Sequence record: NC_014260.1
Direction: 5' to 3' (one strand)
Source: Escherichia phage IME08
DNA length: 64,000 nt
This document shows positions 20,649 through 62,955 of the stretch, piece by piece. Every line of letters begins with the position of its first letter. The first letter of the stretch is position 1. The notes beneath the pieces are model-generated. The model did not search any database, was not told the DNA's origin, and saw only the letters and a program-made list of their open reading frames with translations. A program made the translations under genes and the position numbers.

Positions 20649-20664
20649 AAGGCCCGAAGGCCTT
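20649..20664. terminator. hairpin AAGGCC-CGAA-GGCCTT (C(UUCG)G on minus transcript)
   Basis: Immediately upstream of alt paralog B start on the minus strand. Confidence 0.5.
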
Positions 20665-20836
20665 AAAGTGGTAGCAACGTACGGTATACTTCGAATGTCG
20701 GGCCTTTTTCGTAGCCATCAAAGACCTCAATAAATTTATTATATGCGGCTTCATCTATGAATTCTAAAATGGTTTGAGAAACGGCTGGGGCAGCCGTAGT
20801 ATGCGATATTACAATTGTTTCTAAATAAGCTTTCAT
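20663..20836 (-). CDS. hypothetical small protein (alt.1-like position)
   Basis: Probable start at internal ATG 20836, 1 nt after the ligase stop; ORF-track ORF 20663-20878. Confidence 0.4.
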   Translation of the reverse strand: MKAYLETIVISHTTAAPAVSQTILEFIDEAAYNKFIEVFDGYEKGPTFEVYRTLLPL

Positions 20837-20837
20837 A

Positions 20838-22343
20838 TTATAGTCCAGTTTGAGACCAATCACCGAATACATCTTCAAATGTATCAGCTTCTGTTTTATC
20901 GAAACGCCAACCTTTAATGATTGGAAGGAAAATACCTACAGTATCTGTACGTCCTTTAGAATGAACCCAACCATTACATTCACAGTCAGCAATACGTCCA
21001 ATCAACTTACCTTCACGAGCTTGTTTCATAAGAAGTTCACGGTCTAAATCAGGACGGTCTTCCAATGGAATCAATACCTTTTTACCTGATTTATCTTTCT
21101 TATGGGTGGTATCTTTAAAGCCTGAACCACAGTCACTTGTAATTCGTCGACAACGTGATACCAACTCGACCCCACCTAGTTTGTTAGGGTCCTTCGAGTG
21201 TTCATAATAACCTACTACTTCTAAAGCGATATCGATTACTTCTTTGAACTTGATAAGATTCTTAGAACGGCGGTTTTCCCAGTAGGAGTCCATGTTCTTA
21301 AGGATAATGCCTTCCAGACCTTGGTCGACATATTTTTTATAAACGACTTTAGCTTCTTCAAGATTATTAACCCATTGCGTTTCGATAGGCTCGACACGTG
21401 TAAAGCCTTCAGCCATTTGTACTAATGCCGCTAAACGAACATCGTATTTTTGACCTTTAATTTTGCCTTCAGAATAAACTTCATCCAGTGGAACAAAGTC
21501 CCATGCCTGTAATACCATACCATCGGCTTCAGCCGGAGTAATAGTTCCTTGAAGAGCCTTGTTAGCCAAGCCGTTTGAAGTAGAACGATCAGCGACAGTT
21601 TGGAATTCCTTAGCCTTACTTAATTCAGGAAGTTCCTCATCAAACATACTAAACAAATCATTAGATGCTTTAGGTTCTACTTTAGGAGTATGGTAAACTA
21701 ATTCACCATCAATCATAACCCCATTAGGATGGCGTTGTCGAGCTTCTTCGGTCATTTTAATAAGTTCGGCTGCAAGCTTAGTAAGCCCTTGATATTCATT
21801 ACCACCACGAGTAAGGAATGTCACCCCATCGTTACGAACTTCGGCAAAACAACGAGCACCGTCAGCTTTTAATTGAGCAAACGCTGGCCATTTAATATTT
21901 TTCTTAATTAAAGCTTCATCATAAGAACTAGCTAACATTTGAGGTTGTTCAGGGATTAAACCTTTCCAAACCTTGTTAGCAATAGAAATCGATGCACCGC
22001 ATTCAAGGTCACGCATCATTACACGACGTAATACCTCGGCATCCGAGGCCTTAGCATCAGCAATGATTTGAGCCAGTTCTTCAATAGCCGCATTACCCGT
22101 AATCTTACGGGTGGCTAATGTGAACTCTGCGAAATCAAGAAGGTCTTCAAGAGTAATCATACCAAAGGATTGAGACGTAAATCCAGGTTCTGGCCACTTT
22201 TTAATGCCATAGTTTAAACGACGGGTATAAGCCATACGATAAACACGTTTCAGAAGCTCATCGTCCTTTTCACGAGCAATAATGGCTTCTTTAGCTTTAG
22301 TAGAATCAATAGCAGCAATTTCGTTTAAGATATCTAAAATCAT
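20838..22343 (-). CDS. 30: ATP-dependent DNA ligase gp30
   Basis: Start at internal ATG (MILDILNEIAAI…); KADGARC adenylation motif; colinear with recalled T4 ligase. Confidence 0.9.
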   Translation of the reverse strand: MILDILNEIAAIDSTKAKEAIIAREKDDELLKRVYRMAYTRRLNYGIKKWPEPGFTSQSFGMITLEDLLDFAEFTLATRKITGNAAIEELAQIIADAKASDAEVLRRVMMRDLECGASISIANKVWKGLIPEQPQMLASSYDEALIKKNIKWPAFAQLKADGARCFAEVRNDGVTFLTRGGNEYQGLTKLAAELIKMTEEARQRHPNGVMIDGELVYHTPKVEPKASNDLFSMFDEELPELSKAKEFQTVADRSTSNGLANKALQGTITPAEADGMVLQAWDFVPLDEVYSEGKIKGQKYDVRLAALVQMAEGFTRVEPIETQWVNNLEEAKVVYKKYVDQGLEGIILKNMDSYWENRRSKNLIKFKEVIDIALEVVGYYEHSKDPNKLGGVELVSRCRRITSDCGSGFKDTTHKKDKSGKKVLIPLEDRPDLDRELLMKQAREGKLIGRIADCECNGWVHSKGRTDTVGIFLPIIKGWRFDKTEADTFEDVFGDWSQTGL

Positions 22344-22353
22344 AATCACCTCA

Positions 22354-22632
22354 TTAGTCATGGATTCTATTATAAGCCACATCGGCCAAAAGCAAGTCTA
22401 ATCGCTTATGATAAGAGAACACAAATCTCATTCGCCCGTCAGATTTAATTTTGGACATAAAATGGACATAAATGAATCCCTGTTCGACGCATTCGCGCCA
22501 AACAGGATGGTCTTTAGCCGGATTTACATCAAATGAGTAATCATGATTCACATGACGAATAAACTGGTTTACATGACCATAATCCATTGTAGTGGTAGGA
22601 CCATAGTCTGAAATTGTATGAACTACAAACAT
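22354..22632 (-). CDS. hypothetical protein (30.1-like)
   Basis: ORF with internal start MFVVHTIS…; T4-like position. Confidence 0.45.
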   Translation of the reverse strand: MFVVHTISDYGPTTTMDYGHVNQFIRHVNHDYSFDVNPAKDHPVWRECVEQGFIYVHFMSKIKSDGRMRFVFSYHKRLDLLLADVAYNRIHD

Positions 22633-22633
22633 A

Positions 22634-23272
22634 TTAACCTCGAGCAATCCATTCAACTGCGGCATTATTACGAAGGGATTCGATTGCTGCGATATCGTCC
22701 CATGAATTAACCTTTACGGCTAAATTAGGTTTAAAGTCACGTTCACCACGAGCTAACCAATAAACTTGGATATCCATGAGAACATTAGATGCTGCATCGC
22801 AGTGGTGAGCCAAATCATCAACATAAAACTTAATACGTTTACCGTATGTATTTTTAGCTCTTATGAACAAGTCTTCTTTTGATTCTGAATGACCACACAT
22901 CAGAATCTCCTTGAATGCGCCAGGGAACAAAGCATTCAAATTGAATTGTCTATTCAGCAGGGCATCAATTGAGTCGCCTAGCGCAGTCACGGCTACAAAA
23001 TCGAAGTCTTTTTTGAGCTTGTTGATATGTTTTAATGCGTCCATGTAAGGAGACAGATAACGAATAAAATCCGACTGATTATATTTCTCGATTAAACGAG
23101 CGCCCAATTCATTATCACAATTAAACAGCTCGCCTGGAGATAAGAAACGTTCGTCCTGAATCATATTCAAAATATGTTCTAAAGGCAAATTATATTTCTG
23201 TGCGAAATAAGGCAAGCCGGACTGCCAACTTAAACATACTCCATCGATATCTGTTAAGATAACTGGTTTCAT
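22634..23272 (-). CDS. HAD-superfamily phosphatase-like protein (30.2-like)
   Basis: 212 aa; N-terminal LTDIDGV (DxDG nucleophile motif) and distal Asp-containing motif. Confidence 0.55.
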   Translation of the reverse strand: MKPVILTDIDGVCLSWQSGLPYFAQKYNLPLEHILNMIQDERFLSPGELFNCDNELGARLIEKYNQSDFIRYLSPYMDALKHINKLKKDFDFVAVTALGDSIDALLNRQFNLNALFPGAFKEILMCGHSESKEDLFIRAKNTYGKRIKFYVDDLAHHCDAASNVLMDIQVYWLARGERDFKPNLAVKVNSWDDIAAIESLRNNAAVEWIARG

Positions 23273-23736
23273 AATAAATCTCTCAATTTGTTTAGGATGT
23301 CGATAAACTCTTTTTCAGTTAGTATTGTATCACATTCTGTAAGGTGGCTTGCCATCGAATGCTTTAAAACTTTACCTTTAGTGGCTTGTAACGCATCGCG
23401 GAATCCTTTGTTCTGGAGCGCTGCTTCAAAATACGCACTTTCGTAAAGCTCTTTCCACGCTGTGGAATATCTTGAAAACGGAGTTCCAAGCCAGAACAAC
23501 GTACCACGGTCCTGAGCTCTAGCATAAGCTCGTCCAGCTTGCTGAGCGGCCAACCCGGACATCCCAAATATACGTCTTTGTTGTTCAACATTTTTCACCT
23601 TACACCCTTGGAGGAATCCTTCGAGTCCACCAAATTGGATACCATCCATAACGAAAGGCCATTTAGCAAAGTTACTTAATGCGCATGATGGCCACGGAAA
23701 GTTGCTTCTGATTTCTAACTCAGACATCTTTGACAC
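23269..23736 (-). CDS. NADAR (YbiA-like) domain protein (30.3-like)
   Basis: 155 aa; LSNFAKWPFVMDGIQFGGLEGFLQGCK parallels E. coli YbiA FSNFAAWPIKVDGKTWPTSEHYFQAQK (recalled). Confidence 0.5.
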   Translation of the reverse strand: MSKMSELEIRSNFPWPSCALSNFAKWPFVMDGIQFGGLEGFLQGCKVKNVEQQRRIFGMSGLAAQQAGRAYARAQDRGTLFWLGTPFSRYSTAWKELYESAYFEAALQNKGFRDALQATKGKVLKHSMASHLTECDTILTEKEFIDILNKLRDLL

Positions 23737-23932
23737 TTACTACATCAACGTTTGCCCAATGTCCATAACTAGGTAGACGGTCTTTAATAGATAATCCACC
23801 GTCAGATTTCAGCATTTTAATTGTTTTAGTATATGGTTCAATATTTCGGGCCCATGGACTCCCGTCTGTTACGCGATAAGTCACTTCGACCATTTCCGTA
23901 CCTAATAATTTCTGAATCAATTTCTTAACCAT
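23720..23932 (-). CDS. hypothetical small protein
   Basis: 70-aa ORF in early cluster. Confidence 0.4.
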   Translation of the reverse strand: MVKKLIQKLLGTEMVEVTYRVTDGSPWARNIEPYTKTIKMLKSDGGLSIKDRLPSYGHWANVDVVSVKDV

Positions 23933-23933
23933 A

Positions 23934-24128
23934 TTATCCTCGCTTTAAACATTTGATTACAGACAGTTCACCACCCATACGAACATCTTCAGTTCCATCG
24001 ACCCATAGGACGGTGTAGGCTTCTTTAATAGTAACATTACCTAATTTAAAAGCAGGTATAACCTTTGAAATCATGCCAGGAATACCTACACCTTTTAATT
24101 GGACTGTTTGCGATAAGAATAGTTGCAT
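23934..24128 (-). CDS. hypothetical small protein
   Basis: 64-aa ORF, tightly packed with neighbours. Confidence 0.4.
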   Translation of the reverse strand: MQLFLSQTVQLKGVGIPGMISKVIPAFKLGNVTIKEAYTVLWVDGTEDVRMGGELSVIKCLKRG

Positions 24129-24415
24129 TAGAACCTCATCTGAAAGCCATGTGATTTAACATTACCGCCATAGATGTCAGATGTATTGACTTCACGTGCA
24201 GCGCTCGGGTCGATATTGATATCATGGTTGAGCTTAGTGATTGCTAGGGTATCACGACCATTAACAGTACGGAATTCTACTGGGCACACAGCATCAGCAT
24301 AAGCCTTAATAGATTCACGAGTAGGTTGTTTGTCGGCAGGAACGTCTTTACCTGCTTTAGAGAAAACAACTTCACAGAAATTTTTACGAGTATCAAAATA
24401 AGTGGTCATAAACAT
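24128..24415 (-). CDS. hypothetical protein
   Basis: Start at internal ATG after GAGGAAA RBS. Confidence 0.45.
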   Translation of the reverse strand: MFMTTYFDTRKNFCEVVFSKAGKDVPADKQPTRESIKAYADAVCPVEFRTVNGRDTLAITKLNHDINIDPSAAREVNTSDIYGGNVKSHGFQMRF

Positions 24416-24430
24416 AATATTTTCCTCAAA

Positions 24431-24446
24431 GGAGGCCGAAGCCTCC
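24431..24446. terminator. hairpin GGAGGC-CGAA-GCCTCC (C(UUCG)G on minus transcript)
   Basis: Between two minus-strand ORFs; the stem contains the RBS-like GGAGG. Confidence 0.5.
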
Positions 24447-24456
24447 ATTTTTAAGA

Positions 24457-24822
24457 TTAGATATCGAATTCGTTCAGAACTACATCAAAGATTGCTTCCA
24501 GGTGTTCAGGTTTAGCTCGGTTGCTCAGGATGTGACGAATCCAAGTTTTAACCAGAAGCTTACGATTATCACCGTTCCAGCAAGGATGGGTACCTAAATC
24601 ACGTTGACGGAAATCGTCATCTAAAGCGATTTTAAAAGTAGAACCTTCCATTGTGATTGAAACCGTAATACCATTTTCAAAGCGCATATAAACGTAGTTA
24701 GGAGTCATGCACTGTTCGATTTCGCACACTGTACCGTTGTTGTGTTTCCACAGGCAAATAACTTCAGAAGAACCAGCGATACCGTTAGAAACATATTTAC
24801 GTTCGAAGTTGATGTAGTTCAT
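24457..24822 (-). CDS. hypothetical protein
   Basis: 121-aa ORF preceded by an early-promoter cassette. Confidence 0.5.
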   Translation of the reverse strand: MNYINFERKYVSNGIAGSSEVICLWKHNNGTVCEIEQCMTPNYVYMRFENGITVSITMEGSTFKIALDDDFRQRDLGTHPCWNGDNRKLLVKTWIRHILSNRAKPEHLEAIFDVVLNEFDI

Positions 24823-24863
24823 TTTATTCTCCAGTTTGTTTTCGTATTATTTGGTACAGGTCT

Positions 24864-24892
24864 ATAATAACACAACCTGTACCAAAGTAAAC
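24864..24892 (-). promoter_or_regulatory. T4-type early promoter (GTTTAC-N17-TATTAT) with flanking inverted repeat
   Basis: Plus-strand ATAATA 24864-24869 and GTAAAC 24887-24892; GGTACAGG/CCTGTACC inverted repeat brackets the -10. Confidence 0.55.
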
Positions 24893-24896
24893 TGTT

Positions 24897-25265
24897 TTAT
24901 GCAACTTTAATCCAATTATCTAAATTTAATTCACCTTTGGCTTTCATTTTTTCAATCAAATCATCGGCAGTGGTGCGACCATTTTGATACCATGTAACAT
25001 CTTCAGAATAACCGGTTTCTTCATCTTCATAGGTCTTACAACGAATCTTACCGGTTATGATAGTTTTCAGTTCGTAGGTATCACCGGTAAAAAAGTTTGT
25101 TACCATAATTTTCCAAGAGAAGTCATCAGAAGGACCTTCCGGAGTCATGCAACCTACAAATTCAAATTGTTCTTTGTACAAGCGCCATTGCATTTCTTTA
25201 GTTTCGATTGCTTTGTAACCGTCGTGGTCTTTACATTTGATATATGAGTTAAGATTGATTTTCAT
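24897..25265 (-). CDS. hypothetical protein
   Basis: 122-aa ORF preceded by a near-identical promoter cassette. Confidence 0.5.
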   Translation of the reverse strand: MKINLNSYIKCKDHDGYKAIETKEMQWRLYKEQFEFVGCMTPEGPSDDFSWKIMVTNFFTGDTYELKTIITGKIRCKTYEDEETGYSEDVTWYQNGRTTADDLIEKMKAKGELNLDNWIKVA

Positions 25266-25306
25266 TTTATTCTCCAGTTTGTTTTTGTATTATTTGGTAC
25301 ATGTCT

Positions 25307-25335
25307 ATAGTATCATGCCTACCGGAGATGTACAC
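25307..25335 (-). promoter_or_regulatory. T4-type early promoter variant (GTGTAC-N17-TACTAT)
   Basis: Plus-strand ATAGTA 25307-25312 and GTACAC 25330-25335. Confidence 0.45.
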
Positions 25336-25363
25336 CCTTTTTTAAAGATTTAGAAACAAAAAT

Positions 25364-25381
25364 GGGACTCCGAAGAGTCCC
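25364..25381. terminator. hairpin GGGACTC-CGAA-GAGTCCC
   Basis: 7-bp stem directly upstream (minus sense) of promoter cassette and after small ORF stop. Confidence 0.6.
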
Positions 25382-25386
25382 ATAAC

Positions 25387-25548
25387 TTATGCCTGAGGCT
25401 TACCAAAGCAAGCAGCATCTGCACGCAATACTGCACGAGCACGAGCTTGAAGCTTATCAACTACCTGATTGATACGCTTGTTGGACGCACGCTTGTAACC
25501 AGCGCGTTTAGAGGTACCGTCAACTACTTTAACTTCTTTCTTGGCCAT
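25387..25548 (-). CDS. small basic protein, hypothetical
   Basis: 53 aa MAKKEVKVVDGTSKRAGYKRASNKRINQ…; weak RBS; not in ORF track. Confidence 0.3.
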   Translation of the reverse strand: MAKKEVKVVDGTSKRAGYKRASNKRINQVVDKLQARARAVLRADAACFGKPQA

Positions 25549-25875
25549 TTTAAATCTCTTAAATTAGAATGCAGGACTTATTGGCGTTGCCTGCGCAAGC
25601 CCTCAAGGGGAACATAGGTTTCGGATATTTAACGACAGGATAACCATAAACCTCGTCATCATACCAACCACGGCTTAGACAGATAACCTTTTTCTGACGC
25701 GTGATAGTACAAAATACATTCAAGAGGTACACCGTAAAACTGTCGGGGTCTTAAAACTATAATGATTCGCAAATCATTAATCAAACAGTTCGACGGCTCC
25801 TCGGATGATATTAAAGACAACATACAAGCAGGTATCATATTATAGTGGAGGTACCTGCCAACATCCACTTAAAAC

Positions 25876-26124
25876 TTACTTCAGGGTAATAATAAAATGA
25901 CGTACTGCTTTACGAGCTGCTGAAGCCAAAGGCTTAGCAAATTTCAGTTCATCTTTAGCTTCCAGTTCAGCAGCCAGAGTAGCCTGAGCAGGATTCAGAT
26001 GTTTGAAATAACGCAGGATTTCCAGTGCTTCGGCTTCAACATCAATAGATGCGCCGTAGTTTTCGTGACCGTTGTTCCAAGCGTTGCGTTGCAGTTCAAG
26101 AGCGTGATTCAGTTGTTTGTTCAT
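25876..26124 (-). CDS. rIII: rIII lysis-inhibition accessory protein
   Basis: 82 aa (T4 rIII is 82 aa), position between 31 and ligase cluster. Confidence 0.6.
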   Translation of the reverse strand: MNKQLNHALELQRNAWNNGHENYGASIDVEAEALEILRYFKHLNPAQATLAAELEAKDELKFAKPLASAARKAVRHFIITLK

Positions 26125-26261
26125 TTTAGTTTCTCAATTCGAGATAAAGATTGGCGAGCACGTTCGTCTCAGTATTCCAGCTGAGTTGTATCTCGCCGTA
26201 TGGAAGAGGCTAACCCCATACACCAACCGAAGTTCTGTATGACATCAACCTCTTCGTAATT

Positions 26262-26585
26262 TTATTTATACAAGCAAGGAATTGCTTTATAGTGGCAGGT
26301 AACGAATTTTTGTTTAATTTCTTTAGGCTGTTTAATACCCAATGCAACTAAAGGATGAGGCACGTTAGCAATCTTACCAACAGGAAGTGGAGTCAAATCG
26401 CCTACTTCACAAAAACCTTCAGGGACATCAGGTCCTACAGAATAAATTTCACAAAGTTCAGGGATTTCACCTTGATGAAGTTTGCCAATAACGATACCAG
26501 ATGCAGTAGTTTCTTCATCACCAGCTTGTTTTGGTTCGGAAACGAGAATAACATATTCTCCGACCGCTTTAATAGGAAGTTCCAT
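26262..26585 (-). CDS. 31: gp31 co-chaperonin (GroES-like)
   Basis: 107 aa; T4 size 111; position. Confidence 0.8.
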
Positions 26586-26643
26586 ATTTAATCCATATTG
26601 TTTTGTTGATAGATTAATAATAACACGCTATTCTTAAAGCATA

Positions 26644-26940
26644 TTACAGGACAAGCAGAGTTTCGGTCTGAAGCCCATTAACAGAAATCAGCTTATCGAA
26701 ACGGAATGAGCGCCATTGTTGAAGGTCGACATCAAAAACATATAGAGAATTACGTGGGCCCTGTTTACCTGTTTGAGATTTGAAGTCTTCCTTTTTAGGA
26801 AGAAGGTCTAAGTCCCGAGTACATTTAAGACGACGAATATTACCATTAATCTTTTCAAACACCACTTCGTGAGTGCCTACAGACAGGATGGTTTTTACTT
26901 TTTCACATAGACGAATTGTTTCTTGTTCAGTTAAAATCAT
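26644..26940 (-). CDS. hypothetical protein (31.1-like)
   Basis: 98-aa ORF. Confidence 0.45.
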   Translation of the reverse strand: MILTEQETIRLCEKVKTILSVGTHEVVFEKINGNIRRLKCTRDLDLLPKKEDFKSQTGKQGPRNSLYVFDVDLQQWRSFRFDKLISVNGLQTETLLVL

Positions 26941-26942
26941 AA

Positions 26943-27176
26943 TTATTCCAGAATAGTTTTGATAGTGGTTGCATTACGCTCTTTTAGAGCTCTTAATAGA
27001 TTATGACAATTATCAAGAATAGGCACCGTTTTATATTTCATTTCGGCGCGAACCCACTCGGATTTATAGTACGATTTCCAACGAGAGAAAAAGTACTTTT
27101 TATATTCTACTGAATAGGCTATCAGGTTTTCACCTTTTGAGTTCAGGCCTGAAAATTTAACTAGACGAAATTTCAT
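26943..27176 (-). CDS. hypothetical protein (31.2-like)
   Basis: 77-aa ORF. Confidence 0.45.
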   Translation of the reverse strand: MKFRLVKFSGLNSKGENLIAYSVEYKKYFFSRWKSYYKSEWVRAEMKYKTVPILDNCHNLLRALKERNATTIKTILE

Positions 27177-27721
27177 TATTCACCACAATAGTTTTGAATT
27201 GATTCCCAGTTCAAAGAACGGAGACCTGTACGATTATACTGGATAACTTCGATGCCTGATTCACGGAGGATATCGTCCCAACCTTCAGGATTTCGGTCAT
27301 AGAGCTCAGCATAAACCAGTGTTTTAATTCCGGACTGCGCAATAGACTTAGCACAATCAGCGCACGGAGATAACGTCACGTACATCGTAGCGCCATCAAT
27401 AGAACTTCCGGTACGAGCTGCAAACAAAATAGCATTCAGTTCAGCATGGATTTCATTTTTAGATGACCATGCAGCGTGAGCCATACGGTGTTCTTTAAGA
27501 AGAACCGATTTATGCGACATTCGAGCTGGGTCATACACAACACGAGTCCAGTCCTGTTCCACAGCGTGGTCGCAACAGTTAACACCACCGGATGGTGAAC
27601 CATTATAGCCTGTAGAGATAATGCGACCATTCTTTTCGATAACCGCACCCACTTTCCATGAACAACATTTTGATTCTTGAGAAATCAGATATGCAATCTG
27701 AAGGTATGTGCTTGCTTTCAT
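27176..27721 (-). CDS. cd: dCMP deaminase
   Basis: 181 aa; zinc-ligand motifs HAELNAI and SPCADCA. Confidence 0.9.
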   Translation of the reverse strand: MKASTYLQIAYLISQESKCCSWKVGAVIEKNGRIISTGYNGSPSGGVNCCDHAVEQDWTRVVYDPARMSHKSVLLKEHRMAHAAWSSKNEIHAELNAILFAARTGSSIDGATMYVTLSPCADCAKSIAQSGIKTLVYAELYDRNPEGWDDILRESGIEVIQYNRTGLRSLNWESIQNYCGE

Positions 27722-28059
27722 TACATCACCACTAGATAAGCTGTATTATTGGTTTCGACACGATATAAATCGGTACGAAGTTTAGTGATAGATTTCACAC
27801 GTGAGGTTAATATACCATAACCGTCTGGGAAGCGTTTTTGTTTATCGAAAAATACCGCCGCCGGAATTCGATCACCAATTTCAACCGGAAGAACAGTAGC
27901 CAGCACAGCATCATATGTTGAAGTATGGATGCTTTGGAAATCTTCACTCAGTTTAAAAAGGTCTTTGATGTACTGAGTAGCCTTTTCAGAGAGACCTCGA
28001 TGGTCTCCGTCTTCGTCAGATTGTAAGGTGGCATTAACTTCTAGTTTTAAATTAAGCAT
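27721..28059 (-). CDS. hypothetical protein (cd.1-like)
   Basis: Start at internal ATG (MLNLKLEV…). Confidence 0.4.
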   Translation of the reverse strand: MLNLKLEVNATLQSDEDGDHRGLSEKATQYIKDLFKLSEDFQSIHTSTYDAVLATVLPVEIGDRIPAAVFFDKQKRFPDGYGILTSRVKSITKLRTDLYRVETNNTAYLVVM

Positions 28060-28288
28060 CAATATACACCCGCTGCGCTTCGACCAAACCATCTGAACCG
28101 AGTTTTAACTGGGTAACCTGGCCACCATTTTTAAGATTAACTATAACCAATACCGCGCGGGGTGTTTCCTGGATTACTCGCAGAGTTGCGTCAGGAAAAC
28201 GTACAGAAACCTTATTAATCAGGGCCTGAGCAAATTCTTTAACTTTAACTTGGAACTGCTCTACAGTAATAGGTTGTTCGCTCAGCAT
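28052..28288 (-). CDS. hypothetical protein
   Basis: 78-aa ORF. Confidence 0.4.
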   Translation of the reverse strand: MLSEQPITVEQFQVKVKEFAQALINKVSVRFPDATLRVIQETPRAVLVIVNLKNGGQVTQLKLGSDGLVEAQRVYIDA

Positions 28289-28842
28289 TAGATTGTCTCC
28301 AACTTAAGTTGTTTGGTAGTGGTAGCTTGGGTAACATCGCCTTTAACAATATAACACACTTGTTGGAACGAACTGGTCAAAAGCTCTTCAGCCTGACGAT
28401 CGGCTTGTTCCTTTGTGTTATGGCGAGAATGAACTTCAATCTTACCATTTTTAACAATAAGCACTTTCCAATCGGCCGGAGTTTTAATAGGTTTGATTTC
28501 AGGGTTCTGGAAAACTAACTGCAGTTCTTTAGGGTCTACCACTTCGATAAAGTATTCGAATTCATGGCTAAAAAAGCCCGCTGAATTAAAAAGAACACTA
28601 TTTGCATCGTCAGGATTACCTGTCATTTTGCTCGGGTCGACAAACATCATCTCGTCATATACACGAATTCGGCTTACACGTTCACGCCCATTATGGTAAT
28701 CAATTTCAACTTCAAACGGATTCATACCCACATACTTAGCAAAAGCTGTATTGAGGCCATAAGCACCGTTATTAGTGAATTTGTTTTTAGTGTATTCACC
28801 AACGAACTTGTAAAACTTACGCTCTTCAAAGAACTTACTCAT
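28288..28842 (-). CDS. hypothetical protein
   Basis: 184-aa ORF. Confidence 0.5.
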   Translation of the reverse strand: MSKFFEERKFYKFVGEYTKNKFTNNGAYGLNTAFAKYVGMNPFEVEIDYHNGRERVSRIRVYDEMMFVDPSKMTGNPDDANSVLFNSAGFFSHEFEYFIEVVDPKELQLVFQNPEIKPIKTPADWKVLIVKNGKIEVHSRHNTKEQADRQAEELLTSSFQQVCYIVKGDVTQATTTKQLKLETI

Positions 28843-28904
28843 TTCGATTTCCTCATTTGTTTCGGTAAGGTCATCATATCACCGTCCTTGGTGAAAGTAA
28901 ACAC

Positions 28905-29183
28905 TTAAATTGCTTCGACAACTACCGTTTGTTTCTGGAAGTCCATTTTGCATGAAATAGCCAAAATGTGGTTATCAATTTTAAATGGAACAATTGCAAA
29001 TGCTGCACCAGGTGTGAGTTGAACAGTGATTGCATCAACTGCATCTGGGAACATGATTTCCAGAATAGCAGACAAACGAGCGTGTACTTTTAGTTCAGTC
29101 GACGTGTCGACGGTTTCGTATAGATAATCAGATACAATCTGACTAAAAACAGTTTTAACAATTTGAGAATAAGTAGGGAACAT
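28905..29183 (-). CDS. hypothetical protein
   Basis: 92-aa ORF. Confidence 0.45.
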   Translation of the reverse strand: MFPTYSQIVKTVFSQIVSDYLYETVDTSTELKVHARLSAILEIMFPDAVDAITVQLTPGAAFAIVPFKIDNHILAISCKMDFQKQTVVVEAI

Positions 29184-29190
29184 AATTACC

Positions 29191-29406
29191 TCAGTGTACT
29201 GTATGGACCTTCACGTTAACAATAAACCGGTCAACGACTTCAGTCAGAGGAACGAACTCAACATAGTATTCGCCTTTGTAACGTTCATTGAGGTCATTAC
29301 GAAGGGCCGCTAGTGAGTTAATGAGGGTAGGAGACATATTCTGACCTACCAGTTTCTGAAGCTCTTTATAAGCTTCTTCTTCAACTTCATGGTGTTTGTT
29401 ATACAT
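29191..29406 (-). CDS. hypothetical protein
   Basis: Start at internal ATG (MYNKHHEVEE…). Confidence 0.4.
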   Translation of the reverse strand: MYNKHHEVEEEAYKELQKLVGQNMSPTLINSLAALRNDLNERYKGEYYVEFVPLTEVVDRFIVNVKVHTVH

Positions 29407-29595
29407 AATGTTCTTCCAAGAAGGCAAGGAGTTCAGGCGCGGATTTAAAAATACCACCATCGACCTTGTCTTCATCTTTATAGTCCATAACATCCAGGCC
29501 AATACGTCCGTCAGTTAAAGGCCATACGCCGAAGAAAAAGCATTTACGTTTTTCAATTTCTTCGATTGTACGAAAAATCTTTTCGATATTATTCA

Positions 29596-29596
<1 letters not shown>
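29399..29596 (-). CDS. hypothetical protein
   Basis: Start ATG overlaps pseT stop (TAATG). Confidence 0.4.
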
Positions 29597-30796
<1,200 letters not shown>

Positions 30797-30800
<4 letters not shown>

Positions 30801-31279
30801 ACGTCAAGTTCCTTATAAAGTTCTTCACGGCAGGTTTTAAGGGTTTTACCCGATTCGTAAGCAACACTTTCAGGAACATCGCCAAGGGTTACTGCGGATT
30901 GCATTTGACCATGGCGTTTAGCCGCATATTCAAAACTTTTCACCAATTCACGAATACGTTCTTTTTCATTATACTCTTCAATGAATTCAGGGTATTCCCA
31001 AACTGGGCGCATCATACGATACCAATGCTGAATAGTAATATAATTACTTCCATCCAGATTAATAATTTGCGAAGGCTTAATAGCGCCCGGAGCATAAAAA
31101 GTTACCTGTCTTACTACATCAATACCGTCCACCATAGCCCAAGCAAAATCAAAAGTTGCCTTCTTTTCAAGTGGTGTACTTGCACAGGACCCTAGCTTAA
31201 GGAGCTTTTGTAATGCAGGCGATTTAACGCCTGAAATGTACTCAGGATTAGCCACAAAACTGTTATCACGTAATGTCAT
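30797..31279 (-). CDS. hypothetical protein
   Basis: Start at internal ATG after GAGGAAA RBS; early promoter upstream. Confidence 0.45.
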
Positions 31280-31313
31280 AGTCATTTCCTCAAATTTTAT
31301 AATCCGTAGGAGC

Positions 31314-31343
31314 ATTATACTCTGCTCCCAAGAGTTTGTAAAC
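31314..31343 (-). promoter_or_regulatory. T4-type early promoter (GTTTAC-N18-TATAAT)
   Basis: Plus-strand ATTATA 31314-31319 and GTAAAC 31338-31343. Confidence 0.5.
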
Positions 31344-31447
31344 TACTTTCCAAAAAGACCATCAATACACATACTGAAAGCAATCCCGAAGCAAAAGAAT
31401 GCGATAGCTAATCTAACGGCATCCCAACCAAGACTACACTCAATCAT
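31343..31447 (-). CDS. small hydrophobic protein, hypothetical
   Basis: 34 aa MIECSLGWDAVRLAIAFFCFGIAFSMCIDGLFGK; ATGA-coupled to o-spanin stop. Confidence 0.3.
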   Translation of the reverse strand: MIECSLGWDAVRLAIAFFCFGIAFSMCIDGLFGK

Positions 31448-31734
31448 TTGCACTTCTCCTCTTTTAACCCGGAACGATAATAACATAACATAGATTTCTG
31501 GTCTTGTACATATCTTTTTACGTCATTCAACCAAATACGATGTTCTTGGGAATCTTCAAATGGCATTCCAACCCAAGCTTTACCATCGATTACCTTAACC
31601 TGCCATTTAACATTATGTTCGGCAATAGGTTGTGGCCATGAAGGATGTAGTTGTTGTTTAGGCACTACAGGAAGCTCCTGAGCACACCCAACTAACAAGC
31701 CAATAGATAATACTACCACAGATAATTTAATCAT
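31444..31734 (-). CDS. pseT.2: o-spanin (outer-membrane lipoprotein, Rz1-like)
   Basis: 96 aa; signal peptide with lipobox LLVGC; directly downstream of i-spanin. Confidence 0.7.
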   Translation of the reverse strand: MIKLSVVVLSIGLLVGCAQELPVVPKQQLHPSWPQPIAEHNVKWQVKVIDGKAWVGMPFEDSQEHRIWLNDVKRYVQDQKSMLCYYRSGLKEEKCK

Positions 31735-32084
31735 TCTGTAATGCTCCTGAAGTCTTCTGTAAAGGAATCGAAGGACTTGTTGATTTGTTTTTCGACCAGT
31801 CCTGGCTTACTTGCCACCACGTGCGCCTTCTTCGAATCTTTACGGAGCTTTTCATTTTCTACCTTAATTTTATCCATTCGGGCATTCATTTCAGTAGTAC
31901 GGAATTCAATATCAGAGTATTGACCACGAAGGTCCTCTACAGCTTCGGCGTTCTGTTTTGCCGTTTGCTGGGTTGTTTTCAGTTCTTCAGTAAGGGTATC
32001 AATACGGCTTGATTGATACGAAATAAAACCGTAAGCACCTACTGCAATGGCTCCAGCTAAAAGGTAAATACTTAATTTAGACAT
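31731..32084 (-). CDS. pseT.3: i-spanin (inner-membrane, Rz-like)
   Basis: 117 aa; N-terminal TM helix followed by coiled-coil-like charged region. Confidence 0.7.
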   Translation of the reverse strand: MSKLSIYLLAGAIAVGAYGFISYQSSRIDTLTEELKTTQQTAKQNAEAVEDLRGQYSDIEFRTTEMNARMDKIKVENEKLRKDSKKAHVVASKPGLVEKQINKSFDSFTEDFRSITE

Positions 32085-32572
32085 TTGGTAATAATCTCGA
32101 TGATGTCATCACGTGACAGGGAATTAATAAGAACTGTTTTAGGATTTTCACACTGAATTTTGTACGTTTCGAACATAAAACACAATTCTTCAGCGGTATG
32201 GTAAGGACTTGAAATGCCAAGGCGATTAAACTTGTCGCTTAATGGGTCACAAATCAAATAGAAAGTGATGCCTGAGATTTTAACATTAGGTTGGCTAATA
32301 TTAATGAACACCTCGGCATCGTACTTGGAAAGGTTGTTTCGGAGAAACTCAACCATAGAGTTAACAGCTTCGGGCATGGCTTCACGCTTTTCTTCTGCAT
32401 AACGGGTAGAGTATTCTTTTTGCTTGATTTTCTTTTTAGCATTTTTGGCTAAAGTAACACGAAGATCGGTCAGGTAACCTACTGCACGAGAACCTTTAAA
32501 AACTTGGATACCGTCAGTAGAGTCACCAAAAGCCTTAACAACCATTTCGTTAGTAATCATTTGCATATTCAT
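32072..32572 (-). CDS. alc: Alc-like inhibitor of host transcription
   Basis: 166 aa (T4 Alc 167 aa), position between spanins and rnlA; early promoter upstream. Confidence 0.6.
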   Translation of the reverse strand: MNMQMITNEMVVKAFGDSTDGIQVFKGSRAVGYLTDLRVTLAKNAKKKIKQKEYSTRYAEEKREAMPEAVNSMVEFLRNNLSKYDAEVFINISQPNVKISGITFYLICDPLSDKFNRLGISSPYHTAEELCFMFETYKIQCENPKTVLINSLSRDDIIEIITKCLN

Positions 32573-32602
32573 TTTGTTTTCTCCTCATTAGTTGGTAAGT
32601 CT

Positions 32603-32631
32603 ATACTAACACATCATGAGGAGATGTAAAC
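32603..32631 (-). promoter_or_regulatory. T4-type early promoter (GTTTAC-N17-TAGTAT)
   Basis: Plus-strand ATACTA 32603-32608 and GTAAAC 32626-32631. Confidence 0.55.
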
Positions 32632-34189: not shown

Positions 34190-34197
34190 AGCAATAA

Positions 34198-34211
34198 GGG
34201 GCCGAAGCCCC
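34198..34211. terminator. hairpin GGGGC-CGAA-GCCCC (C(UUCG)G on minus transcript)
   Basis: Between nrdB stop and denA start. Confidence 0.5.
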
Positions 34212-34216
34212 ATTCC

Positions 34217-37793: not shown

Positions 37794-39482
<1,689 letters not shown>

Positions 39483-48883: not shown

Positions 48884-48899
48884 GGGACCTTACGGTCCC
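48884..48899. terminator. hairpin GGGACC-TTAC-GGTCCC after gene 35
   Basis: Directly after TAA of gene 35, followed by a T-run. Confidence 0.6.
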
Positions 48900-48907
48900 T
48901 TTTTTGC

Positions 48908-53478: not shown

Positions 53479-53483
53479 GAAAA

Positions 53484-53497
53484 GGGCCTTCGGGCCC
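53484..53497. terminator. hairpin GGGCC-TTCG-GGCCC (UUCG tetraloop) after gene 37
   Basis: Immediately after gene 37 stop. Confidence 0.55.
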
Positions 53498-53509
53498 TAA
53501 GGATTTATT

Positions 53510-55261: not shown

Positions 55262-55302
55262 AATATTCTCTTCAATTCAGTACGACATTATCTGATAGGG
55301 CT

Positions 55303-55331
55303 ATACTAACATATCCTTAGGGATTGTAAAC
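55303..55331 (-). promoter_or_regulatory. T4-type early promoter (GTTTAC-N17-TAGTAT) for asiA
   Basis: Plus-strand ATACTA 55303-55308 and GTAAAC 55326-55331. Confidence 0.55.
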
Positions 55332-55475
55332 ATGTTCTTCGTTCTTTTTAACATATTCCTGATACATCTCTTCTATTGGTTCCTGGAACTTAAAATCAGC
55401 TCCCAGGAATTCCTCAAAGCACTCCTGCTCACGCGTACGCATGCCTGTTACGGTATTCTCTAAGTTATGGCTCAT
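55317..55475 (-). CDS. small acidic protein, hypothetical
   Basis: 52 aa, Glu-rich (MSHNLENTV…EEFLGADFKFQEPIEEMYQEYVKKNEEH); not in ORF track. Confidence 0.3.
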   Translation of the reverse strand: MSHNLENTVTGMRTREQECFEEFLGADFKFQEPIEEMYQEYVKKNEEHVYNP

Positions 55476-57646: not shown

Positions 57647-57680
57647 TTTAATCTCCGATAACCATTTATTTGATAGGTCT

Positions 57681-57710
57681 ATAATAACATTATCATAGAC
57701 CTTTGTATAT
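57681..57710 (-). promoter_or_regulatory. early promoter-like cassette upstream of motA (weak -35)
   Basis: Shares TTGATAGGTCTATAATA; -35 position reads GTATAT rather than GTAAAC on plus. Confidence 0.35.
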
Positions 57711-57942: not shown

Positions 57943-58000
57943 TTTGTATCTCCATTTCACTCTGTTGTTTTGATAGGTCTATAATAACACGTTTAAAGCA
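57940..58000. repeat. 61-bp direct repeat copy 1 (start codon + leader + RBS + early promoter -10)
   Basis: Identical to 58263-58323. Confidence 0.8.
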
Positions 58001-58009
58001 AAAGTAAAC
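57981..58009 (-). promoter_or_regulatory. T4-type early promoter (GTTTAC-N17-TATTAT)
   Basis: Plus-strand ATAATA 57981-57986 and GTAAAC 58004-58009. Confidence 0.55.
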
Positions 58010-58049
58010 TTTATTTTGAGCTCTTTTCAAGAGCTCTGGTAAAAATTAC

Positions 58050-58265: not shown

Positions 58266-58323
58266 TTTGTATCTCCATTTCACTCTGTTGTTTTGATAGG
58301 TCTATAATAACACGTTTAAAGCA
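58263..58323. repeat. 61-bp direct repeat copy 2
   Basis: Identical to 57940-58000. Confidence 0.8.
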
Positions 58324-58332
58324 GATGTATAC
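58304..58332 (-). promoter_or_regulatory. T4-type early promoter variant (GTATAC-N17-TATTAT)
   Basis: Plus-strand ATAATA 58304-58309 and GTATAC 58327-58332. Confidence 0.45.
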
Positions 58333-58357
58333 CTTTATTTTCACTAAACCCAAAAAA

Positions 58358-58373
58358 GGAACCCGAAGGTTCC
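58358..58373. terminator. hairpin GGAACC-CGAA-GGTTCC
   Basis: Follows the stop of the small membrane ORF. Confidence 0.55.
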
Positions 58374-58376
58374 TTA

Positions 58377-58478
58377 CTTTTTAAAGTGAGCTGCTATTAA
58401 ACCTATAGCTAAGCCTGTCGCCAGGCCTAGGATAACAGCAAAGATACAGAGTAACAAGAACTCGACTCCAAGGCTCAT
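58377..58478 (-). CDS. small hydrophobic membrane peptide, hypothetical
   Basis: 33 aa MSLGVEFLLLCIFAVILGLATGLAIGLIAAHFK; start ATG overlaps gene 52 stop (ATGA). Confidence 0.3.
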
Positions 58479-59854
58479 AGAGCCTCCAAATCTTTAACAT
58501 ACTCAGTTACCACATCAGTGGTTTTCCAGTATCGGTGCTCTTCTTTCTTAGCCTTGGCTTCGAGGGCCAGTTTCTTGGCTTCATCAGAAGTGATATGGAA
58601 AATGTTCATGGCCACTAGTTTATCAGCGTATTCGCCATAGACTTTATTACTAGCCAATTCTTCGGTTAAAACCTTGCGAGTCTTACCTTGGATAACCACT
58701 ACACCATCAATAACATCTTTGATAAATGTGGCTTTAGCCAATGCCAGTTTGAAAGCTTCTTCAGTTTCGATGATTTTACCATCAATACGTTTCTGTACAA
58801 AGGTCTTACGGACCTCAACGAAATCACGAATCAGTTCAACTGCATCTTCGTAAACCTTAAGTTTACCTTTCTCATTAATGACAGTCAGGTTTTGTGAACG
58901 ACGTTCGATTAACCCGAAGTCCTTCATGATTTTTTCATGCTTCTTATTTTCTTCGGTAGGCAATTCATATTCTTTACGAATCTTAACCTTGAAGCCGAAA
59001 CCGTTCTCGTCACAGTCATCATCATATGTGATATACCCTTTGTCTTCCAGAGGGTCTAATATCTTGGCCACATATGTTTCACGGTCATATTTGTACGGGA
59101 TTTCCGTGATATGCATTTGGGTTCGGGATGTGAACTTATACGTTCCACGAATCTCATAACTACCTGGTTCAATTTCAACAACTTCACCACGGAATTCAGG
59201 ATAAGCCACTTTAGGTTTTGTTACTCGTTTTTCCTGAAGAACTTGCAATACAGCTTTCTTAACAGAATCAAAACTATGAGGAAGAATATTAGTTGCATAA
59301 CCAGTTGCAATACCGGAAACGCCATTAAGAAGAACAGTAGGAATAATAGGCAGATAAAAAGCCGGTGGCTTATGTTCGACATCCGCATGAACCGGAGCAT
59401 ATTCTGTGTCCTTATAAACTTTTGCAAAGTTACTTCCAATACGTGCAAAGATATAACGAGAGGCCGCAGCTTTTTGAACCAATCGGGAACCAAAGTTACC
59501 TTGACCGTCTAACAATGGATAGTTGTTGTTCCATGTGTTAGCCATCAAAGCCCCTGCTTCCTGAGCAGAACCTTCACCATGGTGATATCCAAGGTCGGCT
59601 ACACCACCAGCGATAGAAGCCAGTTTGTGGAATTTTTCTTTATTACCACGAGCCATATCAAGACAACGAGCAACCACAAAACGTTGTACAGGTTTAAAGC
59701 CATCAATCATATTTGGAATGGCTCGGTTTTCGACAGTATACATTGCATAAGCCAATGCTTCGTTGTCGATAATACTTTTTAAGTCACGAGGAGTAAAAGC
59801 ATCGTCGTAAACATCTAAAGCCTGTTTAAAAAGGGTATCAATTACATCAGCCAT
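58475..59854 (-). CDS. 52: DNA topoisomerase II medium subunit gp52
   Basis: 459 aa; GyrA-like N-terminus (AIPNMIDGFKPVQRF…, SRYIFAR with active-site Tyr context). Confidence 0.9.
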   Translation of the reverse strand: MADVIDTLFKQALDVYDDAFTPRDLKSIIDNEALAYAMYTVENRAIPNMIDGFKPVQRFVVARCLDMARGNKEKFHKLASIAGGVADLGYHHGEGSAQEAGALMANTWNNNYPLLDGQGNFGSRLVQKAAASRYIFARIGSNFAKVYKDTEYAPVHADVEHKPPAFYLPIIPTVLLNGVSGIATGYATNILPHSFDSVKKAVLQVLQEKRVTKPKVAYPEFRGEVVEIEPGSYEIRGTYKFTSRTQMHITEIPYKYDRETYVAKILDPLEDKGYITYDDDCDENGFGFKVKIRKEYELPTEENKKHEKIMKDFGLIERRSQNLTVINEKGKLKVYEDAVELIRDFVEVRKTFVQKRIDGKIIETEEAFKLALAKATFIKDVIDGVVVIQGKTRKVLTEELASNKVYGEYADKLVAMNIFHITSDEAKKLALEAKAKKEEHRYWKTTDVVTEYVKDLEAL

Positions 59855-60163: not shown

Positions 60164-60241
60164 TTAGCGTCCGAAGACGCCTTTAGTTTTAAGATTGTTA
60201 CGATAGAACTGCATCACATGTTCGTTATGGAAATTGCTCAT
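60164..60241 (-). CDS. stp: Stp peptide (suppressor of three-prime phosphatase; host restriction / anticodon-nuclease modulator)
   Basis: 25 aa [25 protein letters not shown], essentially the recalled T4 Stp; ATG overlaps ndd stop (TAATG). Confidence 0.75.
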
Positions 60242-60690: not shown

Positions 60691-60767
60691 ATCAATTTCC
60701 TCAGTAGATTAATGTTTTGTTATCCAGTCAACGAGAACCATTATAACATGATTCTCGAGGTTGTAAA

Positions 60768-61456: not shown

Positions 61457-61482
61457 AATCATCTCCATTAGTTGATAGGTCT

Positions 61483-61511
61483 ATAATATCATGATTAATG
61501 GAGATGTATAC
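61483..61511 (-). promoter_or_regulatory. T4-type early promoter variant (GTATAC-N17-TATTAT)
   Basis: Plus-strand ATAATA 61483-61488 and GTATAC 61506-61511. Confidence 0.45.
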
Positions 61512-61601
61512 TGATTTATGCCAATTTCCACAACAATAAACTAAAACATACACAAATCACTGGGATACAGGCCATCCAAATAAGGCACCACGTTTTGCTA
61601 C

Positions 61602-61868: not shown

Positions 61869-61896
61869 TTTGTTCTCCTCATTAGTTGATAGGAAG

Positions 61897-61926
61897 ATAG
61901 TAACACCATCCATGGCGTATGTAAAC
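61897..61926 (-). promoter_or_regulatory. T4-type early promoter (GTTTAC-N18-TACTAT)
   Basis: Plus-strand ATAGTA 61897-61902 and GTAAAC 61921-61926. Confidence 0.5.
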
Positions 61927-61938
61927 ACTTATTTTAAA

Positions 61939-62520
61939 TTATAAGGCGAGATACCAGCCGTTGTAATTGCTCTTACGGACCAGCTTTGTGATGGCTTCTC
62001 TGTCACCAGAGAACTTAGGAGTGAACAGGACATCGCCTGCCTCATTTACTGAAGTGTCGAATATAATTATACAGTCTGCGACTTTATGATTCAAGAGCGG
62101 TCCCAGGTTAATCCCTGTTCCATAAGGGAAGTCACCCGAGTATCCTGTAGTACAGGAAATCCACTTAGAATCTGATTGGTGGGTCTTGACCTCTACACGT
62201 AGTCCACAGTACATAGGATGAGCTAAAACATCCCATGCATAGGTATAAGGGTCGTCATGGTCTTCCAGACCGCTGTTAACGTATCCTTTCAACCAATCAG
62301 CAACCATGTACTCGGCATACGTTGCAATGACACACCGAGTCAATACTTCTTTCTTATCTTGGGACGGGTCTTGGCTTAAGGAATACAGTACGGTATCCTT
62401 AATCTTGACCTTCATTTCACCTGTTAAATCAGATGTCTTCAGGGTAAATGTCGGCATCGCTGCCAATCGGAGTAGTCCCGGGTTCGTCTTCACCATAAAT
62501 GCCTCGAATATGAAGTTCAC
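61939..62520 (-). CDS. hypothetical protein at the denB position (possible endonuclease IV; start uncertain)
   Basis: 193-aa ORF whose 5' end overlaps the upstream ORF by 92 nt; identity not verifiable from memory. Confidence 0.35.
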   Translation of the reverse strand: MNFIFEAFMVKTNPGLLRLAAMPTFTLKTSDLTGEMKVKIKDTVLYSLSQDPSQDKKEVLTRCVIATYAEYMVADWLKGYVNSGLEDHDDPYTYAWDVLAHPMYCGLRVEVKTHQSDSKWISCTTGYSGDFPYGTGINLGPLLNHKVADCIIIFDTSVNEAGDVLFTPKFSGDREAITKLVRKSNYNGWYLAL

Positions 62521-62737
62521 CGTAATAAATTCGGTCGTCAGGTTCTAAAGTATCAGAATCTGCTAAAGGAAATTCACCTTCGACCACCTCATCACATTCC
62601 AGAAAAGCGTAATGAACATCACCAGGGTGTTTAACGAGCTTAGCACAATAAACAGTACCCGCTTTATGGAACCCACGCAAATTGGAAATCTTGATATCGC
62701 GTTCACCGACATTCAGGTAATTAATCATTTTACTCAC
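62429..62737 (-). CDS. hypothetical acidic protein
   Basis: 102-aa ORF. Confidence 0.35.
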   Translation of the reverse strand: MSKMINYLNVGERDIKISNLRGFHKAGTVYCAKLVKHPGDVHYAFLECDEVVEGEFPLADSDTLEPDDRIYYGELHIRGIYGEDEPGTTPIGSDADIYPEDI

Positions 62738-62927
62738 CGAAATAAGAAATACGAACCTCTAAACAATGAGCATAAGCACCCATCGCATCCAGTTGAGCAA
62801 TCAGTAACCCTTGTTGACGGATATCAAGAGTTTCAAAAACACCGCCTTTAATAAAGGTTTCTAGTGCATTAATTTTAAGAACCAGCTGGTCGTATTCTTC
62901 AACTACACGTGCTTGGTAACCTAACAT
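62730..62927 (-). CDS. hypothetical small protein
   Basis: 65-aa ORF directly downstream of rIIB. Confidence 0.35.
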   Translation of the reverse strand: MLGYQARVVEEYDQLVLKINALETFIKGGVFETLDIRQQGLLIAQLDAMGAYAHCLEVRISYFGE

Positions 62928-62939
62928 AATTTCCTCTTA

Positions 62940-62955
62940 GGAGGCCGAAGCCTCC
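62940..62955. terminator. hairpin GGAGGC-CGAA-GCCTCC after rIIB
   Basis: Same hairpin sequence as at 24431-24446. Confidence 0.55.

Follow-up and report, generated by a model that had tools for sequence, protein, structure and literature searches.

What are the short GC-rich hairpins that sit between the genes of Escherichia phage IME08, and at what level would they act? The stretch that holds them, here called the window, is 64,000 nucleotides of sequence record NC_014260.1, and an earlier note, drawn from its letters, had described a family of UUCG and GNRA tetraloop hairpins punctuating its early strand and had proposed that they probably serve as terminators or RNA-stability elements. Taken together, our exhaustive scan, folding calculations and comparisons with related phages make it highly probable that the UUCG-capped members are classic T4 C(UUCG)G hairpins, acting at the RNA level and falling into three groups according to what surrounds them: terminators, hairpins placed ahead of a Shine-Dalgarno (SD) sequence, and a hairpin that splits a ribosome-binding site.

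Sense-strand UUCG hairpins at gene ends

We scanned the whole window for perfect stems of 5-9 bp that carry a UUCG loop on a C-G closing pair, and found nine hairpins with CGAA on the plus strand, which is UUCG in the minus-strand RNA, with stems of 5-9 bp, and a tenth (53483-53498) that has TTCG on the plus strand and lies in the plus-strand tail-fibre operon. The C(UUCG)G loop and closing pair on a short, GC-rich, perfect stem is common to all ten. In 200 dinucleotide-preserving shuffles the mean number of such hairpins was 0.7 and the maximum 4, and none of the other tetraloops came near the excess seen for UUCG. Each of the eight positions in the earlier note is a perfect GC-rich stem round a plus-strand CGAA (UUCG in the minus-strand RNA), the scan adds 60167-60180 and, with TTCG on the plus strand, 53483-53498, and the two hairpins it called identical, 24431-24446 and 62940-62955, are so (GGAGGCCGAAGCCTCC); its early strand is the minus strand. 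The GNRA half of its proposal did not survive, as the two strands have 4 and 6 GNRA hairpins with perfect stems, counts within the range of local shuffles (about 2.1 and 2.3, maximum 7), and most of these are AT-rich stems within genes; at orthologous sites of other phages GNRA loops do take the place of UUCG.

Nine of the ten hairpins lie outside called genes, in a window where the sequence outside such genes makes up 8.5%, and the tenth, 34198, falls within an over-long start call for denA. Hairpin 60167 overlaps with the final five codons of stp, a small gene. In every case (10/10) UUCG is on the strand of the flanking genes, and CTTCGG in the sense orientation forms a hairpin of at least 5 bp at 10 of its 18 occurrences in the window, against 0 of 27 in the antisense orientation. 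This asymmetry, together with the inversion of the hairpin in the oppositely transcribed operon (53483), indicates that selection acts on the RNA transcript and not on the DNA. At the junction of 30.7 and 30.6, the hairpin of RB69 has a G-U pair on the sense strand, which on the opposite strand would read as an A-C mismatch. The folding calculation that the earlier note had suggested as a check, carried out with nearest-neighbour energies, gave minimum free energies of −9.3 to −16.9 kcal/mol for the ten hairpins in contexts of 34-42 nt, with z-scores of −1.5 to −4.9. A longer, imperfect stem with a C(UUCG)G cap also lies on the minus strand at 26193-26236, between gene 31 and rIII, at about −18 kcal/mol in a 44-nt context. 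Part of the region can also fold in a competing way (26193-26226, −11.8 kcal/mol), and the stem is a possible eleventh member.

The hairpin class itself is already known, having been discovered in T4 intercistronic regions. According to a passage in PMC8948821 that refers to Tuerk et al. 1988 (PNAS 85:1364), CUUCGG hairpins are unusually stable, abundant in the intergenic regions of T4 and able to stop reverse transcriptase, and a re-count of the T4 genome by the Gold laboratory (PMC7165471) gave the same sense/antisense asymmetry as we find in the window. Loop, closing pair, restriction to the sense strand, intercistronic placement and phage group are all shared with the T4 hairpins; as far as sequence can tell, the hairpins of the window have every feature of that class, and most are orthologous to T4's own. 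We compared the junctions with those of JS10, T4, RB69, RB49 and T4-like contigs of IMG/VR found through DenA, gp30.7 and gp32. The same junctions are occupied in T4, RB69, RB49 and dozens of T4-like IMG/VR genomes, with stems that differ by compensatory changes and a loop that is mostly the same, occasionally GCAA, GUAA or GAAA in place of UUCG. The likeness to T4 intercistronic hairpins that the earlier note had seen is thus borne out in a T4-type phage in which at least six of the ten junctions (hoc, alt.1, 30.9, 37/38, stp/ac and, weakly, rIIB) have a UUCG hairpin in T4 itself. At four junctions T4 differs, with UUCA at 30.7/30.6, GCAA at nrdB/denA, a pentaloop after gene 32 and GAG upstream of motA.

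Table 1. Hairpins and promoter-like repeats of the window (sequences are given for the strand named; energies in kcal/mol; ORF, open reading frame).
Feature	Coordinates	Strand	Stem-loop-stem	Position and flanks	Energy	z-score
UUCG hairpin	3736-3757	minus	AAAGGGACC-UUCG-GGUCCCUUU	5 nt past hoc stop	−15.2	−3.5
UUCG hairpin	20649-20664	minus	AAGGCC-UUCG-GGCCUU	overlaps alt.1 stop codon	−12.3	
UUCG hairpin	25362-25383	minus	AUGGGACUC-UUCG-GAGUCCCAU	4 nt past 30.9 stop; then UUUUUGUUU; early-promoter-like repeat next, 25303-25343	−16.9	−4.9
UUCG hairpin	40552-40571	minus	GGGAAGAC-UUCG-GUCUUCCC	17 nt past gene 32 stop; then UUUUUGG; early-promoter-like repeat next, 40493-40548	−14.1	−3.6
UUCG hairpin	58356-58375	minus	AAGGAACC-UUCG-GGUUCCUU	overlaps stop of 34-codon hydrophobic ORF downstream of gene 52; then UUUUGGG; early-promoter-like repeat next, 58290-58345		
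UUCG hairpin	24431-24446	minus	GGAGGC-UUCG-GCCUCC	between 30.7 and 30.6	−15.1 (with flanks)	
UUCG hairpin	53483-53498	plus	AGGGCC-UUCG-GGCCCU	between genes 37 and 38, late plus-strand operon	−12.2	
UUCG hairpin	60167-60180	minus	GCGUC-UUCG-GACGC	formed by last stp codons (GVFGR-stop)	−9.3	
UUCG hairpin	62940-62955	minus	GGAGGC-UUCG-GCCUCC	10 nt past rIIB stop	−12.2	
UUCG hairpin	34198-34211	minus	GGGGC-UUCG-GCCCC	between SD UAAGGA (overlapping nrdB stop codon) and denA AUG 34189-34187		
Related non-UUCG hairpin	48882-48901	plus	AAGGGACC-UUAC-GGUCCCUU	after gene 35; then UUUU		
GNRA hairpin	1356-1373	plus	AAGGGCC-GCAA-GGCCCUU	UUGC on minus strand; between convergent collagen-like ORF and rnlB		
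Early-promoter-like repeats	25303-25343, 32589-32644, 39784-39839, 40493-40548, 55289-55344, 57967-58022, 58290-58345, 61469-61524, 61883-61938	minus				
Second hairpin family	24851-24885, 31303-31333, 37683-37712, 39503-39528, 57675-57702, 60732-60757	minus				

Hairpins predicted to end transcripts and hairpins that precede genes

Termination, stabilisation and translation enhancement are the functions that we infer for these hairpins from their surroundings. Four of them (3736, 25362, 40552 and 58356), and more weakly 20649, resemble bacterial intrinsic (Rho-independent) terminators in having a GC-rich stem, a tetraloop and a run of U, which is 4-7 U long after the four, and differ in this from the other five, which have no U-tract. 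In two of the four an A-tract precedes the stem as well, a feature of bidirectional terminators, and both lie at or close to convergent gene ends. Since 3736 has both A-tract and U-tract flanks and sits between convergent genes, it probably works as an intrinsic terminator in both directions; the hairpin after hoc in both T4 and RB69 is AAGGGGC-UUCG-GCCCCUU. The hairpins at 25362, 40552 and 58356 all read as intrinsic terminators. The first of these was flagged as terminator-like in our promoter/terminator scan, and after 30.9 a UUCG hairpin with a U-tract is present in all 16 orthologous loci, with four stem variants (GGGACUC here). After gene 32 a GC-rich hairpin with a U-tract is found in 19 of 23 related loci as well as in T4, RB69 and RB49, and only an AT-rich stem in four distant loci (43% identity). 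At this site most loci, RB49 and RB69 among them, have UUCG as the loop, and T4 and some others have a pentaloop. Hairpin 58356 is followed, beyond the repeat next to it, by further small open reading frames (ORFs) and then motA, and the equivalent place upstream of motA holds terminator hairpins with the loops GAG in T4 and CGAA in RB69. The hairpin at 20649, with its shorter tail UUUUCUGG, then the late-promoter-like CATAAATA and then alt, would be a borderline terminator between the early gene alt.1 and alt. T4 has the late-promoter consensus TATAAATA at this position, ahead of the virion protein gene alt, and JS10, T4, RB69 and nine distinct IMG/VR sequences have orthologues of this UUCG hairpin, with stems of AAGGCC here, AAAGGCC in T4 and AAGAGCC in RB69 and UUCG in all. 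These five hairpins (20649 only possibly) would act as intrinsic, probably partial, terminators that close transcription units, and three of them have an early-promoter-like sequence within about 20-60 nt downstream, and 20649 has a late-promoter-like one after it.

A second group, 24431, 53483, 60167 and 62940, has the SD of the next gene (GAGG or AAGGA) within 0-4 nt downstream, then the AUG of that gene, and no U-tract. Hairpin 24431 stands 3 nt ahead of the GAGG of 30.6, and in this junction the stem covaries across phages around a loop that is mostly UUCG, with UUCA in T4, GAAA in two genomes and UUUG in one. Hairpin 53483 abuts the AAGGA of gene 38, where the hairpin ahead of the SD has UUCG in RB69 and UUAG in JS10, and 60167 is 4 nt ahead of the GAGG of ac, with GGCGUC-UUCG-GACGCC formed by the same codons in T4. 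Hairpin 62940 is 3 nt ahead of the GAGG of a denB.1 homologue. From the missing U-tract and the position in or before the translation-initiation region of the next co-oriented gene, we consider a role in RNA stability or at the ribosome-binding site more likely than termination for these four and for 34198. The four would each form a fixed structural block at which 3'-to-5' exonucleases halt where the upstream cistron ends, and would at the same time cap the next ribosome-binding site on its 5' side, so that it stays unpaired and is protected after processing.

The leading idea of the earlier note, that all ten are intrinsic transcription terminators or attenuators, fits the four hairpins with clear U-tracts, is borderline for 20649 and fails for the other five, and as an account of the whole set we regard it as improbable. 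All ten are GC-rich hairpins at gene ends and four or five have U-tracts, and stem-loops of the PeSL cassettes of RB49 terminate efficiently in reporter assays (PMC2839356). After rIIB, moreover, RB69 has GGGGAC-UUCG-GUCCCC with a U-tract where the present phage has a hairpin without one and T4 a weak 3-bp UUCG stem. However, five hairpins are followed not by a U-tract but by UAAGAGG, UUUGAGG, UAAUGAGG, UAAGGAU or UUAUUGCU, with the SD and AUG of the next gene directly after and no intervening promoter, and one hairpin lies within a ribosome-binding site (34198) and one within the stp reading frame (60167). A literature search found no Term-seq dataset for T4. It is less probable still that the elements work as DNA, either as cruciform palindromes for recombination and shuffling, as has been proposed for PeSL, or as nuclease or packaging signals, with the RNA hairpin a by-product. 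Unrelated junctions do share copies (24431 is identical to 62940, and 3736 and 48882 have matching stems), the 30.8-30.7 segment and with it hairpin 24431 are missing from JS10, and PeSL-type promoter repeats adjoin several hairpins. Yet a DNA palindrome gives no reason for UUCG to be on the transcribed strand in all ten cases and in none of the antisense copies, for the sole hairpin in a plus-strand operon to be inverted accordingly, or for the sense strand alone to tolerate a G-U pair. With the closing pair fixed, a short GC stem can take few sequences, and convergence is expected to yield identical copies; outside the stem and SD the similarity amounts to just about 61% over 28 nt. A mobile-cassette origin of the identical pair was likewise rejected, given the weak similarity outside stem and SD and the sufficiency of convergence.

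Several observations weigh against the assignment to T4-type RNA hairpins in three groups that we prefer. The division into groups is drawn from sequence context alone, and the z-scores of 34198 (−1.6) and 53483 (−1.5) are modest. U-tracts were classified by inspection, as the generic promoter/terminator scan (20001-40000) was not discriminating, and terminator-like sites there numbered 18 against a shuffle expectation of 15.1, which makes a U-tract by itself a weak sign. Some orthologues are weak or have another loop (the 3-bp stem after T4 rIIB, the pentaloop after T4 gene 32, the CGAA of RB69 motA), and it follows from such sites that the UUCG loop is preferred but not required. The earlier note had also remarked that several stems incorporate GGAGG, which is true of the two identical hairpins and does not extend to a conserved feature. 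T4 has GAGGGGC at the same site, RB69 GGGAGC and two other genomes GGGGC, and since these differ the motif is probably incidental. A functional SD or RegB site in the GGAGG of the two stems was rejected on the same ground, that it is unconserved at the orthologous junction.

A probable split ribosome-binding site ahead of denA

The remaining hairpin, 34198, makes up the third group, and we identify it from its geometry as a predicted split ribosome-binding site of the kind known from T4 genes 38 and 25 (Nivinskas; Malys and Nivinskas). It lies between SD and AUG, and folding would bring the two from 24 nt in the linear sequence to about 10 nt (10 nt as counted with the hairpin folded), comparable to the changes from 22 to 5 nt for gene 38 and from 27 to 11 nt for gene 25 (PMC3014915). 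The classic gene 38 site, GGGC-UUCG-GCCC between SD and AUG at 37/38 in T4, is itself a C(UUCG)G hairpin (PMC3014915). The present case differs in the gene concerned, and in that the 37/38 hairpin of this phage precedes the SD and there is no split. A hairpin at nrdB/denA is present in 34 of 36 T4-like loci, in 18 distinct sequences, and in these 34 loci the spacing is 19-28 nt linear (22-28 save one) and 3-14 nt folded, mostly 6-10. In the alignment 89.7% of cells are paired, a share somewhat inflated by anchoring on picked hairpins; five of seven stem pairs have changed on both sides, with 22 such cells, and the covariation score was reached by 0 of 500 shuffles and collapses on sliding the partner. 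The loop in T4 is GCAA. More widely, phage mRNAs have either a UUCG or a GNRA tetraloop at orthologous sites. This interchange would show that selection is on hairpin stability and not on loop identity, and we put forward, as a tentative suggestion only, that throughout T-even-like phages the synthesis of endonuclease II depends on a conserved split ribosome-binding site, with stability as the selected property. A limited literature search found no paper describing a split site for denA.

The same hairpin could be a negative element that hides or distances the SD and keeps toxic endonuclease II low, with re-initiation after the nrdB stop. DenA (endonuclease II) degrades cytosine-containing DNA. 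Given this activity low expression is plausible, and the SD does overlap the nrdB stop codon, 24 nt from the AUG in the linear sequence. But the folded spacing is the usual 6-10 nt in most of the 34 loci, over a range of DenA identity of about 60-100%, the SD is outside the stem in most of them, and experiments on T4 genes 38 and 25 have shown that the SD-hairpin-AUG geometry enhances their translation (PMC3014915). A repressive role at denA, although possible, is therefore in our view doubtful, and we favour the split ribosome-binding site.

The start codon of denA is annotated in more than one way. The longest denA ORF in the window has an ATG start that reads through the hairpin (34187-34213; MGLRPLIAMKEIA...), and the T4 RefSeq annotation (NC_000866 137927-137951) has a GTG start that also reads through it (VGRKAHFIMKEIA...). 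The conserved start MKEIA, 24 nt downstream, is the one annotated in RB69, and in 34 of 36 genomes it agrees with the arrangement of SD, hairpin and AUG. The T4 record has probably been extended too far upstream.

Neighbouring repeats, genome context and significance

Two further hairpins resemble the family (Table 1). That at 48882, after gene 35, has the stem of 3736-3757 and a late-promoter-like TATAAATA next to it, ahead of gene 36, and at the 35/36 junction T4 and JS10 have a UUCG-type hairpin. That at 1356-1373 is the only convincing GNRA-capped intergenic hairpin of the window, and is probably a bidirectional terminator. The early-promoter-like repeats form a minus-strand family of 40-56 nt similar to T4 early promoters, with GTTTAC or GTATAC, about 17 nt, TA(C/T)TAT and then AGACCTATCAAC. 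They lie upstream of many small early genes, several of them straight after a UUCG terminator, and resemble the PeSL promoter/terminator cassettes of RB49 and phi1 (PMC2839356). Similar to these cassettes (Arbiol et al. 2010, PMC2839356; Comeau et al. 2014, PMC4122927), hairpins 25362, 40552 and 58356 with their promoter-like repeats are terminator-promoter composites; in contrast, the PeSL stem-loop usually overlaps the −35 and −10 boxes or stands between them, and hairpins of that kind are separate ones in the window, with non-UUCG loops. The stems of this second hairpin family flank or include a TATAAT-like −10 box, with AT-rich non-UUCG loops and energies of −12 to −17 kcal/mol, an arrangement as reported for PeSL stem-loops. 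PeSL cassettes are a neighbouring but distinct feature of the window. A 55-nt direct repeat of 93% identity (24818-24872 and 25261-25315) comprises promoter, SD and first codons of 30.7 and 30.8, and JS10 (16900-17020) is without 30.8, 30.7 and hairpin 24431; deletion or insertion by recombination between promoter cassettes would fit this pattern.

Next to hairpin 58356, the 34-codon hydrophobic ORF (58376-58480, minus strand; MSLGVEFLLLCIFAVILGLATGLAIGLIAAHFKK) shares sequence with the end of gene 52 and terminates within the stem of the hairpin. It has the position of T4 motA.1 and no sequence similarity to it, and contains two further strong hairpins, at 58403-58438 and 58464-58492. The called small ORF at 58381-58500 was rejected as spurious, the real one being the 34-codon peptide in another frame that ends at hairpin 58356.

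The window is the right-hand 64 kb or so of a T4-type map from a Dhakavirus like JS10, JS98 and QL01. Pieces of 3.9 kb and 24 kb matched Dhakavirus QL01, WG01, JS10, IME281 and C6 at 92-96% nucleotide identity over near full length, and the gene order in the JS10 annotation is that of T4. In JS10 order the minus strand has uvsW, baseplate genes, two alt copies, 30, 31, cd, pseT, nrdAB, td, frd, 32, 59, 33 and rnh, the plus strand 34-38 and t, and the minus strand beyond t asiA, motA, 52, ac, ndd, denB and rIIB. Unlike in T4, td (37794-38657) and nrdB (34217-35386) are uninterrupted, with no group I introns or homing-endonuclease genes, and an Rfam scan of the whole window at gathering scores matched no family, introns included. 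An ORF with long Gly-X-Y collagen-like repeats (1-1348, plus strand; Pfam Collagen E = 3e-29) lies upstream of rnlB, at the place of gene 24 in T4, and is cut off by the left end of the window; it has 9-nt periodic DNA repeats at 207-868, non-collagen segments that interrupt and follow them, and a sub-threshold CBM_5_12 match. Two alt paralogues (RNA polymerase ADP-ribosyltransferase) stand in tandem on the minus strand at 16401-18524 and 18528-20612, annotated altb and alta in JS10, with DNA segments 70-82% identical at an offset of 2094 nt, while T4 has one alt and the remnants alt.-1 and alt.-2. A plus-strand gene of 288 aa (2863-3729), with a weak sub-threshold Ig_2 match, converges on hoc at the putative bidirectional UUCG terminator, in a region where T4 and RB69 instead carry 24.3 and 24.2 on the minus strand.

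Within a hairpin class that is otherwise known, only the putative conserved split ribosome-binding site at denA, together with the UUCG/GNRA swaps at orthologous sites, is new, and mildly so. The hairpins mark the boundaries of transcription units and cistrons in a Dhakavirus genome, which has little significance beyond annotation, and that at 34198 helps to pick the denA start, the conserved AUG after the hairpin and not the upstream ATG or GTG that reads through it. The compensatory stem changes and the UUCG/GNRA loop swaps form a natural series that could be used for testing hairpin function in phage mRNAs.

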